The notes: generated from the sequence alone by a model not told the origin. Positions 7,452 to 46,186 are shown, numbered from the stretch's first letter. The stretch: DNA of 64,000 nt from Candidatus Hydrogenedentota bacterium (GCA_963668025.2 CAXXTH010000017.1:1376001-1440000); one strand, 5' to 3'. Made by a program: numbers and translations.

Positions 7452-9134
7452 ATGTTTGAAACGATACGAATACAGAATTATGCGCTAATCAATGAAGTGG
7501 AACTCGAGTTCCGGCCCGGGCTTACCGTGCTCACTGGCGAGACGGGCGCGGGGAAATCCATTATAGTGGATGCGCTCAACTTGGTGTTGGGTAGCCGCGC
7601 TTCCGCGGAAGTCGTGCGGGAAGGCGCGCGCAAAGCGCAAGTGGATGCCTTGTTCCGCATGGAAAAAGTGCCCCGGCGCCTGGCCCGCCTCCTCAAAGAA
7701 CATGATATCGAACTCGAGGATGGCTGTCTACTGCTTTCCCGGTCGGTATCTGCGGATGGCCGGAGCCGGGCGTATGCAGGTGGAAACCTCGTGCCTGCGG
7801 GCGTTTTGGCGGCCATAGGCGATGAAATGGTGGACCTGCATGGCCAGCATGAACACCAGTCCCTGCTAAATCCCGAACGGCAAATGGACCTGTTGGATGG
7901 CTTCGGTGGCACGGAAGAGGACGCCGTGGCGGTGGCTCAAATTGTAAGTGAGCTTCGCGACCTCGATAAGTCTATCGCGGATCTGGAGGCCGATGACCGG
8001 GAACGGGAGCGGCGTTTGGAGTTTTTACGGTTCGAGGTCGGCGAGATTGACGCCGCCGCCCTTCAGCCGGGAGAAGAGGAAGAAACCAAGGGACGGCGCA
8101 ACCTAATCGCCAATGCGGAGACCATCGTCAACTTGACCTCGACGGCCTATGGTTCGCTGTACGAACAGGATGAAGGAGCGGCCATAGATCGGATGAATAC
8201 GGCGCTGAAAGCGCTTATGGAATTATCCGAGATTGATGGCCAATTCCAGCCGTTCGTGCTTCAACTCGAACGCCTCCGCTCCGAAGTGGAAGATCTTGCG
8301 CGCCAAGTCCGCGTTTTTACGGACCAAGTCGAGTACGATCCAAACGAACTGGATAATTGCAGCGCCCGTTTGGCATTAATTAGCGGCCTGCGCCGCAAGT
8401 ATGGCGAAACCATCGAGGTGATCTTGGAATACCGCGCCAAGGCGGGGGAAGAGATTGACCGGTATGAACAGCGGGATCAACGGCTTGCGGAGATGAATGC
8501 CCGCCGCATCACGTTGCGGGAACAAGCGCATATTGCCGCTCAAACCCTCTCGCGCAAGCGAAAAAATGTGGCGGCAAAGCTCGATCGATATGTCACGGAG
8601 AGCTTGCAAGAACTGGGCATGAAGGGCGGCCTGTTCAAGACCCGTTTCGAGAACGCGGAATTAGGCTCGATTGGCATTGATCGAGTCGAGTTTTTGCTGA
8701 CGGCGAATCCAGGTGAAAAAGCCAAGCCCTTGCGCCAAGTGGCCTCTGGTGGTGAAATCTCGCGGGTCATGCTGGCGCTGAAGACGGTTTTTGCGAATGC
8801 CGACAAAATCCCGACGCTTATATTCGATGAAATTGATTCCGGCGTGGGGGGTGCTATGGCGTCTCAAGTAGCCTTGCGGCTGCGGGATCTCGCATCGTCT
8901 CACCAGACCTTATGCATCACCCATTTGGCGCAAATCGCGGCTTCCGCCCAAACACATTACGTGGTGTCTAAAACCGAAGAGGATGGCCGCACCCTGACCC
9001 ATGTGTTGCGCGTGGAAGGTGAGGCGCGCATTGAAGAAGTGGCGCGCTTGTTAGACGGCTCGCTATCAGGCGTCAGCCTTGAGCATGCGCGTGCTTTGCT
9101 CAAGGGGGCCATGGAAGGCGCGGCTAAGGAATAA
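7452..9134 (+). CDS. recN: DNA repair protein RecN
   Basis: TGETGAGKS Walker A, HGQHEHQ, ASGGE signature, IFDEID Walker B, CITHL. Confidence 0.97.
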
Positions 9135-9339
9135 GGCCGGATATATTCTCCATCGTCGCGGCGGCGGCATGGGCGTTTTCCTCTTGAATGGCGAGGTAGA
9201 CTTCCCTGCGATGTACGGGCACGGCGCGCGGTGCAACAATGCCGATTTTCACCTGATTGTCTTTAATGTCAAGGACCTTCACTTCTATGTCCTCGCCAAT
9301 CATGATGCTCTCATCTTCCTTACGCGTGAGAACGAGCAT
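9124..9339 (-). CDS. csrA: Carbon storage regulator CsrA, FliW-type (71 aa)
   Basis: MLVLTRK...IGI.AP..V.VHR.E; R44 present; N55 and a C-terminal extension; AAGGAGG RBS. Confidence 0.97.
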
Positions 9340-9790
9340 CGGACACCTCCTTGTCATTGGCGCTCTGGCGGGCTTGCGCAAGGAAAAATTGCACGGGATA
9401 AGGGCTGTTTTCAAGTATAACCTGTTTGGCCAGCCGCTGGCGCAGGTTGATTAGGATGGGCGCTTTCAGATTCGTCCTGATCTTTTGGGGATCCGGCGGC
9501 GCAACCACCAAGGTGAAGGGGGTGATATCCTCGGGTTTCGATGCGGCAAGCTCGGCCAAGTCATGCGGCGATGCTTGCACTTTATAATCGGGCACAACCG
9601 AATAGGGATTCATAAGGATAAAAGCTAATTTCCCCGAGTCTGTAGATTGCAGCCAATGCAGAAATTTGCTTGGCCCTGGCAACAAGACATAGCGCCGATA
9701 TTCTTGGAAACCCAGAATGGGCTGAGTGAACGTGATAATGCTATTTTCTTCGACGCTGATCGCGCCAAATCGCGTAGTCACGAGTTCCAT
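9320..9790 (-). CDS. fliW: Flagellar assembly factor FliW
   Basis: TTRFG, I.F..PILGF, WLQS, F..MNP, TNLKAPI.IN and KQVIL motifs; immediately upstream of csrA. Confidence 0.95.
9342..9355 (-). promoter_or_regulatory. Putative CsrA-binding hairpin over the csrA Shine-Dalgarno
   Basis: mRNA reads GACA-AGGAGG-UGUC: a 4-bp stem with GGA in a hexaloop, 2 nt before the AUG. Confidence 0.55.
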
Positions 9791-10046
9791 GAAATCGCCT
9801 TCCGAAATACCGCCTCCACCCAACCGCATCAGTATGCGCGAAACATGCGTCTTCTTGCAAGAGCGCATGATGTGCTCGAATGTTTGCTTACTCACGTGGA
9901 CGCAGAGGGCGCGGGAGAGCGCATGGCTTATCATAAAGATATGAGTACGATGATGTTTTTTACCATTCGCATTACAGCCGGTCCATCACTTCGTATTCCC
10001 CGTTTCTTAGGCCAAAATCCTGAGCAGTGGACATGGCTTGCCATGT

Positions 10047-43237: not shown

Positions 43238-44032
43238 ATGACGCAACGATTTCTGGCGCGGCTGCGCTACGAGGGAACTCATTTCTCGGGCTGGCAAGTG
43301 CAGCCGCATCTTCGCACGGTGCAAGGCGTAATCGAAGAAGCCCTGTCCCGGATGGCCGGGGAGCATATACGGGTGCAAGGCGCTTCACGTACGGATGCGG
43401 GCGTTCATGCCTTTGGGCAAACGTGCGTGTTTGATTGGAAAAAAGAGCAGGACGGCGGGCGGCTTCAGCATTCCCTCTCGGGCATGCTAGGCCCCGAGAT
43501 TCGCGTGGACGCCATCGAACCGGTTGTGGCGGATTTTGATCCAAGGCGCTGGGCCATAGGCAAACACTATGCCTATACGCTGCATCTAGGGCGGGAAGCG
43601 GATCCGTTTGCCGTCCGGTATGCCTGGCCCATTCGATGGAAGCTGGATATGGGGCGGCTCGCGGATTACGCCCAGCTTTTGGTGGGCGAGCATGATTTCG
43701 CGGGATTCGAGAGCTCCGGTTCTGCTAGCGGCTCCACTATTCGAACCATTCATGGCATAGCCGTGCGGCCCGGGGCGGTTATAGGGTCGTGTGACGCCGT
43801 GAATTGCTGGCGCATGGAATTTCACGGGAGCGGCTTCTTGTATCACATGGTGCGCAATATCGTGGGGACGCTCGTGGATGTGGCGCGCGGCCATAAGCAG
43901 GTGGACTGGATTGCCGAACGGCTACATGCCCCCGGGCCTTTCCGGGGCCGCACGGCCCCTGCTCAAGGCCTGGTCCTCATGCGCGTGTTTTATGAACACG
44001 CCGAATACGCCAAGGCGCACCAGAGGATATGA
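43238..44032 (+). CDS. truA: tRNA pseudouridine(38-40) synthase
   Basis: YEGT.F.GWQ.Q, SRTDAGVHA.GQ, G.HDF, GFLYHMVR, TAP..GL. Confidence 0.97.
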   Translation: MTQRFLARLRYEGTHFSGWQVQPHLRTVQGVIEEALSRMAGEHIRVQGASRTDAGVHAFGQTCVFDWKKEQDGGRLQHSLSGMLGPEIRVDAIEPVVADFDPRRWAIGKHYAYTLHLGREADPFAVRYAWPIRWKLDMGRLADYAQLLVGEHDFAGFESSGSASGSTIRTIHGIAVRPGAVIGSCDAVNCWRMEFHGSGFLYHMVRNIVGTLVDVARGHKQVDWIAERLHAPGPFRGRTAPAQGLVLMRVFYEHAEYAKAHQRI

Positions 44033-44245
44033 AAAGGAAATGCGCCGTGGGGGCAACCACAGCGCACTCACAGAGGGTTTCGGCCTTGCGGATACCTTTC
44101 AGCTCGGGACTTGATATGGCGTCCGAAAGACCGTTTGTTTCGACATCCGTGTCACGTAATCCTCGACTTCCCTGTCTTGGATGAATCTTGATTGGACTTC
44201 CTTGTCCTTTTTTCCGGCCTTGGCCTCCTTGCCTCGGCCGTTATG
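44032..44245 (-). ncRNA. Putative CsrA-binding sRNA 1 (about 210 nt, ends approximate)
   Basis: Sigma-28 promoter upstream; hairpins GGC-AAGGAG-GCC, GGAC-AAGGAA-GUCC, GAC-AGGGAA-GUC and GAC-ACGGAU-GUC; terminator stem 44041-44066 then UUUCCUUUU. Confidence 0.72.
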
Positions 44246-44251
44246 CAATAT

Positions 44252-44278
44252 ATATCGGCGCGTTTGGCGAGAACTTTA
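44252..44278 (-). promoter_or_regulatory. Sigma-28 (FliA/SigD) promoter 1
   Basis: TAAA-GTTCTCGCCAAACGC(15)-GCCGATAT. Confidence 0.85.
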
Positions 44279-44312
44279 GTTGGGGCGCATTCGGTTACAT
44301 CAATAGTGCGCT

Positions 44313-44437
44313 AAAAAAATAAGAGCGCCACACATGGGGACTGTGGCGCACTCAAGAAGGGTGGAACTTGGGACATCGAGACTGGTCCGGGGGACAACCT
44401 TTCCGGCCTCTTTGTTGTTTCCCATTCAACTTTGTTA
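44313..44437 (-). ncRNA. Putative sRNA 2 (about 125 nt), paralogous unit
   Basis: Sigma-28 promoter upstream; GUUG-AAUGGGAAA-CAAC hairpin; conserved GUCCC..AG.U and UGAGUGCGC; terminator GCGCCACA/UGUGGCGC with a U run. Confidence 0.65.
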
Positions 44438-44443
44438 CTTCTT

Positions 44444-44470
44444 ATATCGGCCTTTTGCGGGAAAACTTTA
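44444..44470 (-). promoter_or_regulatory. Sigma-28 promoter 2
   Basis: TAAA-GTTTTCCCGCAAAAG(15)-GCCGATAT. Confidence 0.85.
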
Positions 44471-44575
44471 GCCAAAATATAAAGGAAATTTATATAAACA
44501 AAATGGCATATTCTGGGACTATTTTGGCTTTATTAATGTTACAGAATGATGATACAACACATATTTAGCACTAAT

Positions 44576-44744
44576 AAAGGAAAGCGCCACAATTGGGCAT
44601 TGTGGCGCACTCATGGAGGTATAGCTTAGGGACCTTGTATTCGCCTCGGCGTTGGGACGGCGCCTGGGCTGTGGGACGGTTCCGTTAGCGTAATTTCGAC
44701 TTCCGTGTCTCGGGGGGCTTCGACTTCCTTGTCTTAGCCTTGCA
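44576..44744 (-). ncRNA. Putative CsrA-binding sRNA 3 (about 170 nt)
   Basis: Sigma-28 promoter upstream; hairpins GAC-AAGGAA-GUC and GAC-ACGGAA-GUC plus a further ACGGA; terminator GCGCCACAAU/AUUGUGGCGC then UUUCCUUU. Confidence 0.72.
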
Positions 44745-44750
44745 CTGTAT

Positions 44751-44777
44751 ATATCGGCGGCAATGAACGAAACTTGA
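44751..44777 (-). promoter_or_regulatory. Sigma-28 promoter 3
   Basis: TCAA-GTTTCGTTCATTGCC(15)-GCCGATAT. Confidence 0.8.
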
Positions 44778-44839
44778 GCCCGAATGTAAATGGGCGTGAT
44801 GTGGATTGAATAATAAAACTTATGTGATATTTATGTGTT

Positions 44840-45865
44840 TTAATCAAACAGATGGCCTTGCGCATTTGGTGGAGGCGCCAGGCCGAAGTGGCGGTAGCCA
44901 AGGGGAGTGGCGACGCGCCCCTGCGGGGTGCGCTTGAGGAAGCCTAACTGTATTAGAAAAGGCTCATGGACCTCCTCGATGGTTTGGGCGTCTTCGCCGA
45001 TGCTGACAGCGAGGGAAGACAGGCCAACAGGCCCGCCGCTGAATTTATGGATGACGGTTTCGATGATATGGCGGTCCATGTCGTCGAGGCCCAGCGCGTC
45101 GATGCGCAGAAGGTTAAGCGCGGCATCGGCGATTTCCTGCGTGATGACGCCATCGCCCTTTACTTCGGCAAAGTCGCGCACGCGGCGGAGCAGGCGGTTG
45201 GCGACGCGGGCGGTTCCCCTGGAGCGTCCCGCCAATTCAAGCGCGCCGGTGTCTTCAATGGGCACATTGAGGATGCGGGCGGAGCGTTTGACGATCTGCT
45301 CAAGCTCGGCGGGAGAGTAGAATTCAAAGCGGCAGGTGTCGCCGAAGCGCGCCCGCAGCGGTGGCGTAAGGAGGCCCGAACGGGTGGTGGCCCCGATCAG
45401 GGTGAATCGCTTGAGGCCGATTTTCATCGAGCGCGCCGTGGGGCCCTTCCCGAGCATGATATCGACCTCAAAATCCTCCATGGCGGAATAGAGGGTTTCC
45501 TCGACCGCATGGTTAAGGCGGTGGATCTCGTCGATGAACAGGAAGTCGAACTCATCCAGGCTGGTCAGAATAGCGCTGAGGTCCGCCTGGCGCTCGATGA
45601 CGGGCCCGGAGGTGGATTTAATGTCCACTCCCATCTCATTGGCGAGAATGCGGGCGAGGGTGGTCTTGCCGAGTCCTGGCGGGCCAGAAAGCAGCAGATG
45701 GTCAAGAGGCTCGCGCCGGTTCTTAGCGGCTTCGATGGCGATGTGGAGTTTTTCCTTGATGGGCTCCTGCCCAGGGAAATCCTCGAGGCGCTGCGGGCGT
45801 ATGCGGTCGTCAAACTGCGAGTCCTCGCTAATGGGCGCGCCGCTGAGCAAGTCATTGTTAGCCAT
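44840..45865 (-). CDS. ruvB: Holliday junction branch migration helicase RuvB
   Basis: [53 protein letters not shown]. Confidence 0.98.
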
Positions 45866-46186
45866 GGGGTGTTGTGTTTCCTTATGCCAGGTAAAACCAA
45901 TTAGGCGCGAAGGCGCACTTCGCATCTGCATTATGGAAGACAGCGCGCCCGGACGCAAGCAGTTGGCCAGCGGGGGAAATAGAATGGAAATGCCGCTCTT
46001 CATCTCGCGGAAGAATCCGCCACAAAAAGCGCAGGCCACAAAGATGCATTCTTTCTTGTGCTTCTTGTGCTTCTTGTGGCTAGAGCGGTGTAAGGTTGGA
46101 TACAATGAGATAGAGTGCATGGCTATGATTCAAATTGAACCGCTCAAGTATCGTGAACGAAGATGATGCCGGAATTGGTTACGTAG

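Follow-up and report, generated by a model that had tools for sequence, protein, structure and literature searches.

The gap between truA and ruvB in a 64-kilobase (kb) stretch of DNA from a Candidatus Hydrogenedentota bacterium (GCA_963668025.2, CAXXTH010000017.1:1376001-1440000; this whole stretch is referred to as the window, and positions are given in its coordinates) harbours, on the minus strand, three tandem units that are members of a small RNA (sRNA) family conserved through the phylum Hydrogenedentota and absent from Rfam 15. We consider it fairly probable that these units are late-flagellar sRNAs that bind and titrate CsrA, a reading suggested by promoters of the sigma-28 (FliA) type, by hairpins that resemble the CsrA sites of the flagellin leader in both sequence and spacing, and by the co-occurrence of the family with CsrA, FliW and flagellar genes. 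The genome from which the window derives measures 6.15 Mb (12.3 Mb of strand) and is 93.75% complete.

A tandem array of three units between truA and ruvB

The truA-ruvB gap spans 807 bp and, as the two genes are convergent, neither of them needs a promoter within it. An earlier reading of the window, made from the sequence alone and referred to here as the sequence-only reading, had placed three minus-strand units in this gap, each with a promoter, a body and a terminator, and all of these elements were indeed found in their proposed places (Table 1). The units are of one build, i.e., a sigma-28-type promoter, a non-coding body and a GAGUGCGC-stem-U terminator. Promoters of the form C(TAAA/TCAA)GTT had been claimed for all three units and were recovered in each, with a spacer of exactly 15 nucleotides (nt) in every case and spacer sequences that are otherwise unrelated. 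A search of the window for TAAAGTT-N10-13-GCCGATA returned two matches against 0.00 expected from 100 shuffles. Assuming that transcription starts approximately 7 nt past the -10 element, RNAs of 216, 121 and 169 nt were computed for units 1, 2 and 3, respectively, in agreement with the earlier estimates of about 210, 125 and 170 nt, and their fold z-scores relative to dinucleotide shuffles are -3.67 for unit 1, -1.87 for unit 2 and -2.96 for unit 3.

Six short hairpins presenting ANGGA in a hexaloop had been described for units 1 and 3 together, and these were located as four hairpins in unit 1 and two in unit 3, all conforming to GAC/GGC-ANGGAN-GUC/GCC. Unit 2 contains no GGA hexaloop hairpin and possesses the UCCC and terminator module. 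Hairpins with a 3-bp stem and an ANGGAN hexaloop number 2593 in the 12.3 Mb of strand of this genome, which corresponds to 0.21 per kb, and unit 1 represents the only cluster of at least three of them (Poisson P of finding at least four in 216 nt, 1.7e-7).

The terminator stems of the three units share their opening sequence, GAGTGCGC, at 44612 (unit 3), 44353 (unit 2) and 44069 (unit 1), which bears out the common stem start noted previously. A simple terminator scan detects two of the three, that of unit 2 escaping it because the 9-nt loop of its stem exceeds the limit of the scan; the stem is seen on folding. The terminator of unit 1 abuts the truA stop codon (44030-44032), and thus transcription of the sRNA and that of the converging truA could end at one and the same hairpin. 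Of note, the spacer of approximately 105 nt that extends from the unit 3 terminator to the unit 2 promoter (44471-44575, minus strand) is AT-rich amid GC-rich surroundings.

Table 1. Positions of the sRNA units, their predicted elements and the genes discussed in the text.
Feature	Position	Strand	Remarks
Unit 3 promoter	44777-44751	-	TCAAGTTTCGTTCATTGCCGCCGATAT; TCAA-N15-GCCGATAT
Unit 3 sRNA, type A	44744-44576	-	~169 nt, predicted 5' end; R1 114.5 bits, E 1.7e-30
Unit 3 hairpin H1	44716-44739	-	GGCU-AA-GAC-AAGGAA-GUC-GA-AGCC; CANGGANG hexaloop site
Unit 3 hairpin H2	44698-44709	-	GAC-ACGGAA-GUC; 24 nt after H1
Unit 3 hexaloop hairpins	44733-44722, 44709-44698	-	GAC/GGC-ANGGAN-GUC/GCC
Unit 3 middle hairpin	44643-44669	-	GUCCCA loop; family-conserved UCCC loop
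Unit 3 CCUCC stretch	44615-44619	-	Immediately ahead of terminator
Unit 3 terminator	44576-44612	-	GAGUGCGCCACAAU...AUUGUGGCGC + U tract
Unit 2 promoter	44470-44444	-	TAAAGTTTTCCCGCAAAAGGCCGATAT; TAAA-N15-GCCGATAT
Unit 2 sRNA, type B	44437-44317	-	~121 nt, predicted; R1 34.9 bits, E 2.7e-7
Unit 1 promoter	44278-44252	-	TAAAGTTCTCGCCAAACGCGCCGATAT; TAAA-N15-GCCGATAT
Unit 1 sRNA, expanded type A	44245-44030	-	~216 nt, predicted; R1 80.7 bits
Unit 1 hexaloop hairpins	44233-44222, 44206-44195, 44176-44165, 44153-44142	-	GAC/GGC-ANGGAN-GUC/GCC
Unit 1 terminator	44069-44038	-	
csrA	9124-9339	-	71 residues, presumed partner; Bacillus/Geobacillus type with C-terminal extension
fliW	9320-9934	-	Directly upstream of csrA, overlaps csrA start
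truA	43238-44032	+	PF01416; flanks the array and converges on it
ruvB	44840-46120	-	RuvB_N, lid and C domains; flanks the array; end 63 nt upstream of unit 3 promoter

An sRNA family conserved through the Hydrogenedentota

BLASTN comparison of the gap with 40 relatives retrieved short pieces only, comprising the promoter with the 5' end and the terminators, in 18 of the 40. A pattern scan that required CGATA, H1 and H2 was then applied to one genome per species (185,579 species) and yielded 85 stretches, in records with titles naming Hydrogenedentota, Hydrogenedentes or Hydrogenedentales, 'uncultured bacterium', 'metagenome' and 'uncultured Nitrospirales/Nitrospiraceae'. For five of the oddly titled records (four Nitrospirales/Nitrospiraceae and one 'uncultured bacterium') the match coordinates are identical to those in genomes assigned to the window's phylum by GTDB. 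The metagenome-assembled genomes titled 'uncultured Nitrospirales/Nitrospiraceae' (L030, L031, L040, L059 and others) appear, in the four cases checked, to be mislabelled relative to GTDB.

A total of 126 promoter-to-terminator units were extracted by script, 101 of them of a first architecture designated type A. The 5' part of type A units consists of the sigma-28 promoter, approximately 20 nt, the hairpins H1 and H2 and often AGUUGAA, while the 3' part comprises a structured middle domain with an (A/G)UCCC apical loop, a C-rich CCUCC stretch and a terminator with a conserved stem. The family form of H1 is GGCC-GA-GAC-A(A/C)GGAN-GUC-GA-GGCC, with a tandem GA internal loop (this 2x2 loop is GA/GA in most members and AA/GA in unit 3), and that of H2 is GAC-ACGGAU-GUC. 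Type B, to which unit 2 and others belong, is composed of the promoter and the 3' half, without H1 and H2; of the 25 units that are not of type A, the 13 with a shared terminator core constitute the type B set used for counts.

A covariance model, R1, was built from an alignment of 74 non-redundant type A units (180 positions, 22 pairs) and begins past the -10 element. In the own genome it retrieves exactly the three units of the array, with 114.5, 80.7 and 34.9 bits, the next match having an E-value of 0.9. Among the 40 relatives R1 matches 35, and in the phylum at large it matches 101 of 134 further genomes, distributed over 13 of 15 GTDB families, with one to five copies each, often in tandem, and E-values down to 1e-38. 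Conservation of the GGA loops in relatives, the lack of which would have counted against the sequence-only reading, is seen across loci and model matches alike.

The alignment of 50 R1 matches, which is fitted to the model and thereby favours the structure, shows 93.3% of cells paired as compared to 34-51% in slid controls, with double changes in 18 of 22 pairs, and the observed values were reached by none of 500 shuffles. The covariation resides mostly in the terminator, while the stems and loops of H1 and H2 are near-invariant (e.g., GC 39/AU 1 and AU 37/GC 3), as expected for a site recognized by a sequence-specific protein.

A search of the 64-kb window with the covariance models of Rfam 15 gave no match at gathering score, and at E-values up to 10 no Csr/Rsm or other relevant family was returned for positions 43900-44950 or for the loci of 20 relatives, in keeping with the novelty supposed by the sequence-only reading. 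Membership of the units in an Rfam family was rejected, the only matches being at noise level (e.g., a terminator against ctRNA_p42d, E 1.3-9.4).

The neighbour truA is shared by nine of 29 relatives' loci, all within the window's own family, and ruvB by one of the 29. Other loci have unrelated housekeeping or sugar-nucleotide genes as neighbours, one locus has fliS and fliD, and flagellin genes lie approximately 1-15 kb from the sRNA genes in several genomes. These varied neighbourhoods indicate that the sRNA genes are stand-alone, not pieces of a conserved operon. An RmlD-type (dTDP-4-dehydrorhamnose reductase) or related sugar-nucleotide gene adjoins the sRNAs in five of the 29 loci (L119, L129, L136, L143 and L146), and a GDP-mannose-dehydratase-type gene does so in a sixth (L131); a link of these neighbours to flagellin glycosylation is possible.

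A coding reading of the family was also considered, as 56 of the 74 units contain an ATG, GTG or TTG frame of at least 30 codons. It was rejected because a Shine-Dalgarno (SD) sequence, GGAGG or AGGAG 4-9 nt before an ATG, occurs in only two of the 74 sequences and because indels do not occur in threes, the distance from H1 to H2 taking every value from 21 to 29 nt.

Sigma-28 promoters and the late flagellar regulon

The genome encodes FliA (251 bits, above the curated cut-off) and FlgM (37.8 bits), and flagellin genes are present elsewhere in it behind promoters of the same type, so that both the sigma factor and the flagellin genes presupposed by the sequence-only reading are in place. The loose motif T[AC]AA-N14-17-GCCGATA has only 34 matches genome-wide, and those with an extended CT(A/C)AAG -35 element precede flagellin, fliD, flgN and a FapA-family gene. 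All three units of the array display the features of the FliA regulon, i.e., a TAAA -35 element, a 15-nt spacer and a GCCGATAA -10 element, and the family promoter consensus, ctaAagttt-N-tGCCGATA, is close to the extended consensus of enterobacteria, TAAAGTTT-N11-GCCGATAA.

Since R1 excludes the promoter, the presence of this motif upstream of R1 matches provides an independent, non-circular test. For 49 full-length R1 matches in 30 loci (one partial match of 33 nt having been dropped), the strict motif was found within 45 nt upstream in 37 cases and the loose motif in 44, as compared to 0.67% of random 57-nt windows from the same loci for the strict motif. The remaining five consist of two one-mismatch -10 elements (GCCGATG) and three match-boundary cases. 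This promoter type suggests that the units are transcribed by FliA.

Two further sigma-28-type promoters of this genome, both located outside the window, deserve mention. Downstream of one (G000:C17:644991-645017, minus strand) come at least 300 nt rich in GGA in which no frame is obvious; this sequence includes GGC-AAGGAU-GCU and GUC-ACGGAG-GAC, and three tandem flagellin genes (C17:641773-644327, minus strand) are situated downstream of it. It was considered as a fourth sRNA gene and rejected, as R1 does not match it and its position upstream of three flagellin genes makes a long leader more likely; this leader is probably CsrA-controlled. The other (G000:C19:36367-36393, plus strand) precedes a frame of 108 amino acids without a Pfam match, the short leader of which carries two ANGGAN hexaloop hairpins, CUG-ACGGAU-CAG and, across the start codon, GCC-AAGGAU-GGC. 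This frame may represent a further CsrA target in the late regulon.

The RNA data consulted were those of one wastewater metatranscriptome (X1), the only RNA run retrieved besides DNA-like ones, in the form of contigs, which were compared with positions 43700-45000. A single contig of 155 nt, strandless and 99% identical, aligns at 44361-44514, spanning most of the body of unit 2, its promoter and a further 44 nt upstream, and the AT-rich spacer mentioned above falls inside it up to 44514. No contig covers truA, ruvB, unit 1 or unit 3, although missing contig cover proves nothing. The contig means only that RNA, or carried-over DNA, from this spot was assembled, and the predicted start is not confirmed by it.

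Mimicry of the flagellin leader by H1 and H2

The window itself contains csrA, adjoining fliW (Table 1), and the CsrA that the sequence-only reading relied upon is thus accounted for in this organism. The protein aligns over 69 of its 71 residues with Bacillus subtilis CsrA (1T3O) and also, C-terminal extension included, with the Geobacillus CsrA solved together with FliW (5DMB), these alignments running through residues 66-69, and its core aligns with RsmE and CsrA proteins that have been solved with RNA. The hallmarks of a FliW-CsrA partner switch, i.e., adjacent genes, an extended CsrA and a flagellin leader with two sites, are all found here. In the own sigma-28-driven flagellin leader these two sites are UGC-AAGGAU-GCA and, 25 nt later, the SD sequence UUC-AAGGAG-GAA. 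Among relatives, one or more ANGGAN hexaloop hairpins occur in the 110 nt that precede 39 of 48 flagellin genes (30 loci), and nearly all 48 have an SD of the form CA(A/C/U)GGAGGA. Such two-site leaders, hairpin plus SD, across the phylum make it very likely that Bacillus-type control of flagellin by CsrA has been retained. Many relatives possess three to seven flagellin genes, often in tandem arrays (loci L147-L176), and a sigma-28-type promoter lies within 200 nt upstream of only 13 of the 48; the others may be read through or have longer leaders.

The loops of the sRNA hairpins read C-ANGGAN-G, the commonest versions being ACGGAG for H1 (27 of 74) and ACGGAU for H2 (31 of 74). The usual ACGGAG(G) of H1 is identical to the heptamer of the flagellin SD site, and the usual ACGGAU(G) of H2 resembles the upstream flagellin hairpin. 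The spacing between H1 and H2 has a median of 23.5 nt (range 21-29), and in unit 3 it amounts to 24 nt as against 25 nt in the own flagellin leader. The GGA bases of the hairpins have mean unpaired probabilities of 0.72 and 0.66. In the available text of Dugar et al. (PMC4894983), CANGGANG hexaloops are described as high-affinity CsrA/RsmE sites, and the flaA leader of Campylobacter jejuni, with a site spacing of 21 nt, is shown to titrate CsrA. The arrangement expected of a high-affinity CsrA site pair, namely two apical CANGGANG hexaloops at bridging distance, is present in the sRNAs.

Co-occurrence with CsrA, FliW and flagellar genes

CsrA and FliW are both encoded by 37 of the 40 relatives, and the sRNA was found in 35 of these 37. 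The three relatives without CsrA and FliW, G007 (100% complete), G034 (97%) and G038 (63%), all lack the sRNA, and they also lack flagellin and a FliA above the cut-off. One genome (80% complete; G022) contains the sRNA, CsrA and FliW with no match to FliA or flagellin. In family f11, the sRNA was detected in two and CsrA in one of 23 genomes.

A proposed role in CsrA titration

From these observations the following course of events can be proposed. Upon completion of the hook-basal body, FlgM would leave the cell, and FliA would then transcribe flagellin mRNA and the sRNAs together. The 5' part of the type A sRNAs presents two CANGGANG hexaloops (four in unit 1) that copy the sites of the flagellin leader, i.e., the upstream hairpin and the SD, and each hairpin pair would be clamped by one CsrA dimer. 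The sRNAs would in this way compete with the flagellin leader for CsrA, adding an RNA decoy to the protein antagonist FliW, and flagellin translation would be de-repressed faster, more sharply or more fully than by FliW alone. Such a circuit would constitute a coherent feed-forward loop.

A number of observations weigh against a role in CsrA titration. Exactly two hairpins are present in 94 of the 101 type A units, so that titration would need high expression; the available text of PMC6546359 gives 13-22 sites for CsrB/C. In full-length minimum-energy folds, the exact hexaloop is formed by only 62 of 150 hairpins. FliW is present alongside the sRNA, and it is the main antagonist in the FliW systems covered by the available text of PMC4894983 and PMC7652899. 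The invariance of H1 and H2 in alignment A1 arises in part by construction, as the pattern scan that supplied some of its sequences demanded both hairpins, and it is the 3' module, rather than the GGA hairpins that type B lacks, which is most widely shared among family members. The X1 contig extends 77 nt upstream of the predicted start of unit 2. Two relatives (85% and 83% complete) have CsrA, FliW, FliA and flagellin with no R1 match, and the four genomes of genus g46 (G124-G127; approximately 3 Mb, 78-91% complete) all have CsrA and none has an R1 match; in this genus, the family has either diverged or been lost while CsrA was kept. Finally, the co-occurrence constitutes supporting evidence and not statistical proof, as it reflects few, related losses, mainly in one family, nor does it distinguish an association with CsrA from one with the entire flagellar apparatus.

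The 3' module and alternative explanations

A 3' module composed of a UCCC-loop hairpin, a CCUCC stretch and a terminator conserved in sequence is common to all three units of the array. Since family members devoid of GGA hairpins also carry this module, the family probably does more than sponge CsrA. A second function besides CsrA sponging is likely, as is a two-module RNA with a CsrA decoy at its 5' end and a second activity at its 3' end, and the 3' module probably contributes either stability or a further activity, the latter likely being base-pairing.

If this pairing were the principal function, the units would be base-pairing late-flagellar sRNAs, the UCCC loop and CCUCC stretch of which pair with mRNAs, for example at SD regions, and type A RNAs, through their GGA hairpins, would be served by CsrA (in stability, matchmaking or gating) instead of sponging it. 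We regard this explanation as possible, if somewhat doubtful, and as only partly a rival, given that it is compatible with a dual function. It accords with the occurrence of the 3' module in both types, including the GGA-less unit 2, and with the structure of the middle hairpin, which in a subfamily of 26 members shows 80.4% of cells paired (30-50% in slid controls) and a covariation of 0.323 (at most 0.152 in the controls), figures that are favoured by a structure given by hand and derived from one of the 26 sequences. On a plain MAFFT alignment of this hairpin, variation in register kept RNAalifold from predicting any pairs.

Of 87 minimum-energy folds, 70 place a UCC(C) motif in a hairpin loop, and 64 of 74 type A as well as 12 of 13 type B units have a C-rich motif no more than 24 nt from the terminator. 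This C-rich motif is, however, at least 80% unpaired in only 21 of the 64 type A folds (mean unpaired probability, 0.48), and its conservation is partly explained by the helix that closes the middle domain. When the 3' modules were compared by RNAduplex with six own flagellin-type leaders, z-scores relative to 400 SD-bearing start regions ranged from -1.97 to +0.87, without a consistent signal, and for only three of 18 pairs was at most 5% of the background as good. As RNAduplex takes no account of intramolecular structure and tends towards long artificial duplexes, this result speaks neither for nor against pairing.

No Hfq gene was found in the own, 93.75%-complete genome, so that CsrA remains a candidate RNA partner of the 5' and 3' modules alike, and B. 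subtilis CsrA is stated to promote sRNA-mRNA pairing in the available text of PMC6546359. Furthermore, the sigma-28-dependent sRNAs that are treated in the accessible portions of PMC10578931 and PMC11187230 work by pairing. What base-pairing leaves unexplained is the copying by H1 and H2 of the flagellin CsrA sites, in sequence as well as in spacing.

Intramolecular kissing of the GGA loops with the UCCC loop or the CCUCC stretch was also considered and was dropped, as no covariation was observed between the variable last loop base of H1 or H2 and the base 5' of UCC. H2 and the middle loop are complementary in 27 of 56 cases (29.1 expected if independent) and H1 and the pre-terminator stretch in 25 of 52 (28.8 expected), while the cross pairs are complementary in 11 of 56 and 11 of 52 (12.9 and 11.4 expected).

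The two activities could also be combined in a more specific form, in which the sRNA would be bifunctional and act as a sigma-28-timed second antagonist in a FliW-type Csr system. The 5' half would draw off CsrA as a mimic of the flagellin leader, and the 3' half (AUCCC loop and CCUCC) would pair with the GGA sites (GGGAU loop and GGAGG SD) of flagellin or other late mRNAs. This elaborate version appears rather unlikely. Were it true, one tandem array would both release and directly gate flagellin translation, and type A and type B RNAs (the latter with the 3' elements alone, as in unit 2) would have opposing or sequential roles.

It is improbable that the units are genuine sRNAs with ANGGAN hairpins that are structural or bind a partner other than CsrA, the link to CsrA arising merely via flagella. 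CsrA, FliA, FliW and flagellin are lost together, and co-occurrence is in this respect equally compatible with such a partner; yet the loops fit the CANGGANG hexaloop site and are paired at a bridging distance consistent with the available text of PMC4894983, the same genomes use such sites in their flagellin leaders, and the RNA-binding core of CsrA aligns with solved CsrA/RsmE proteins. An explanation of the units as non-functional (decaying repeats, promoter- or terminator-like debris, or bidirectional terminators for truA and ruvB), for which the unit 1 terminator at the truA stop codon and the lack of mapped 5' ends could be adduced, is already disfavoured and highly improbable in view of the strength and phylum-wide spread of the R1 matches, the compensatory changes, the conserved promoter outside the model and the presence of truA as a neighbour in only nine of 29 loci.

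Comparison with known systems

The preferred reading of the array as a set of CsrA-titrating sRNAs invites comparison with the Csr/Rsm sponges and, even more so, with the C. jejuni flaA leader, to which it may be likened. The units share with CsrB/CsrC and RsmX/Y/Z of the Gammaproteobacteria their organization as stand-alone sRNA genes with a Rho-independent terminator, often in several copies, and their repeated looped GGA motifs that fit the CsrA/RsmE site. Unlike in the case of those RNAs, no covariance-model match was obtained, and two (rarely three or four) sites are present rather than 13-22. The CsrB/RsmZ sponges are, moreover, driven by sigma-70 with BarA-UvrY/GacA, whereas the promoters described here are of the sigma-28 type (BarA and UvrY genes were not searched for); a scan for sigma-70-like promoters gave none in 43500-45300. 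The FliW-encoding host and the extra conserved 3' module represent further differences, the presence of FliW being anti-correlated with Csr/Rsm sRNAs and BarA-UvrY according to the available text of PMC7652899 and PMC4894983.

The C. jejuni flaA leader is FliA-dependent and titrates CsrA together with FliW, as set out in the accessible part of PMC4894983. In that system the flagellin mRNA provides the decoy through its own leader, whereas the putative mimic described here resides on separate, multi-copy, tandem non-coding genes, and the flagellin leaders keep sites of their own.

TwoAYGGAY (RF01731) and Bacillaceae-1 (RF01690) resemble the type A units in having two strong CsrA-motif hairpins per RNA, and the tandem G-A pairs in one stem of TwoAYGGAY are reminiscent of the GA/GA internal loop of H1 in the present family; in the available text of PMC4333381 both are predicted candidate CsrA-binding sRNAs of Firmicutes and are unvalidated. 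Neither model matches the window region or the loci of 20 relatives, even at an E-value limit of 10. H1 is mostly ACGGAG or AAGGAG, as opposed to AYGGAY, to which H2 conforms in 44 of 74 units (ACGGAT 31, ACGGAC 9, ATGGAT 3 and ATGGAC 1), and neither a sigma-28 promoter nor a UCCC module is named for the two Firmicutes families in the available text of PMC4333381.

The Escherichia coli sRNAs McaS and GadY, which have few GGA motifs, antagonize CsrA and also base-pair (available text of PMC7652899), match the two-module layout proposed here. They are Hfq-dependent, whereas no Hfq gene was found in the present genome. The promoters of McaS and GadY are not known to be of the sigma-28 type. FliX, MotR, UhpU and FlgO of E. 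coli (PMC10578931) and CJnc170/FlmR of C. jejuni (PMC11187230) are, like the family proposed here, late-flagellar sRNAs tuning flagellar synthesis. In contrast to the CsrA decoys envisaged here, they act by base-pairing, those of E. coli being derived from untranslated regions, and the available text of these two sources presents none of them as a decoy for CsrA.

The sequence-only reading knew of no described equivalent of the array. This stands in so far as no sigma-28-driven CsrA decoy sRNA was found in the full-text literature (most subscription journals and supplements being outside its scope), and has to be tempered in view of related precedents, namely the flaA leader (PMC4894983) and TwoAYGGAY/Bacillaceae-1 (PMC4333381), as portrayed in the available text of these sources. 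CsrA-binding sRNAs outside the Gammaproteobacteria have thus already been proposed in print, for Firmicutes, but those models do not match here.

In the same full-text literature, Hydrogenedentota and CsrA appear together in one incidental co-mention only, in the available text of PMC13728152. The present family constitutes the first candidate regulatory RNA family for this phylum, R1 can be used for its annotation, and the hypothesis is testable without culturing the organism. To our knowledge, Hydrogenedentota are known only from metagenomes.

According to the accepted picture, as conveyed by the available text of PMC7652899 and PMC4894983, Gammaproteobacteria use sponge sRNAs driven by GacA/UvrY, while FliW bacteria use the protein. 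What is new here is a multi-copy sRNA family that mimics the flagellin leader, is tied, judging by its promoters, to the sigma factor of the flagellar checkpoint and occurs phylum-wide together with FliW. If the proposed function is correct, RNA decoys of CsrA would have arisen independently outside the Gammaproteobacteria, a morphogenetic checkpoint could take the place of a two-component system in the control of such decoys, and RNA and protein antagonists of CsrA could coexist.

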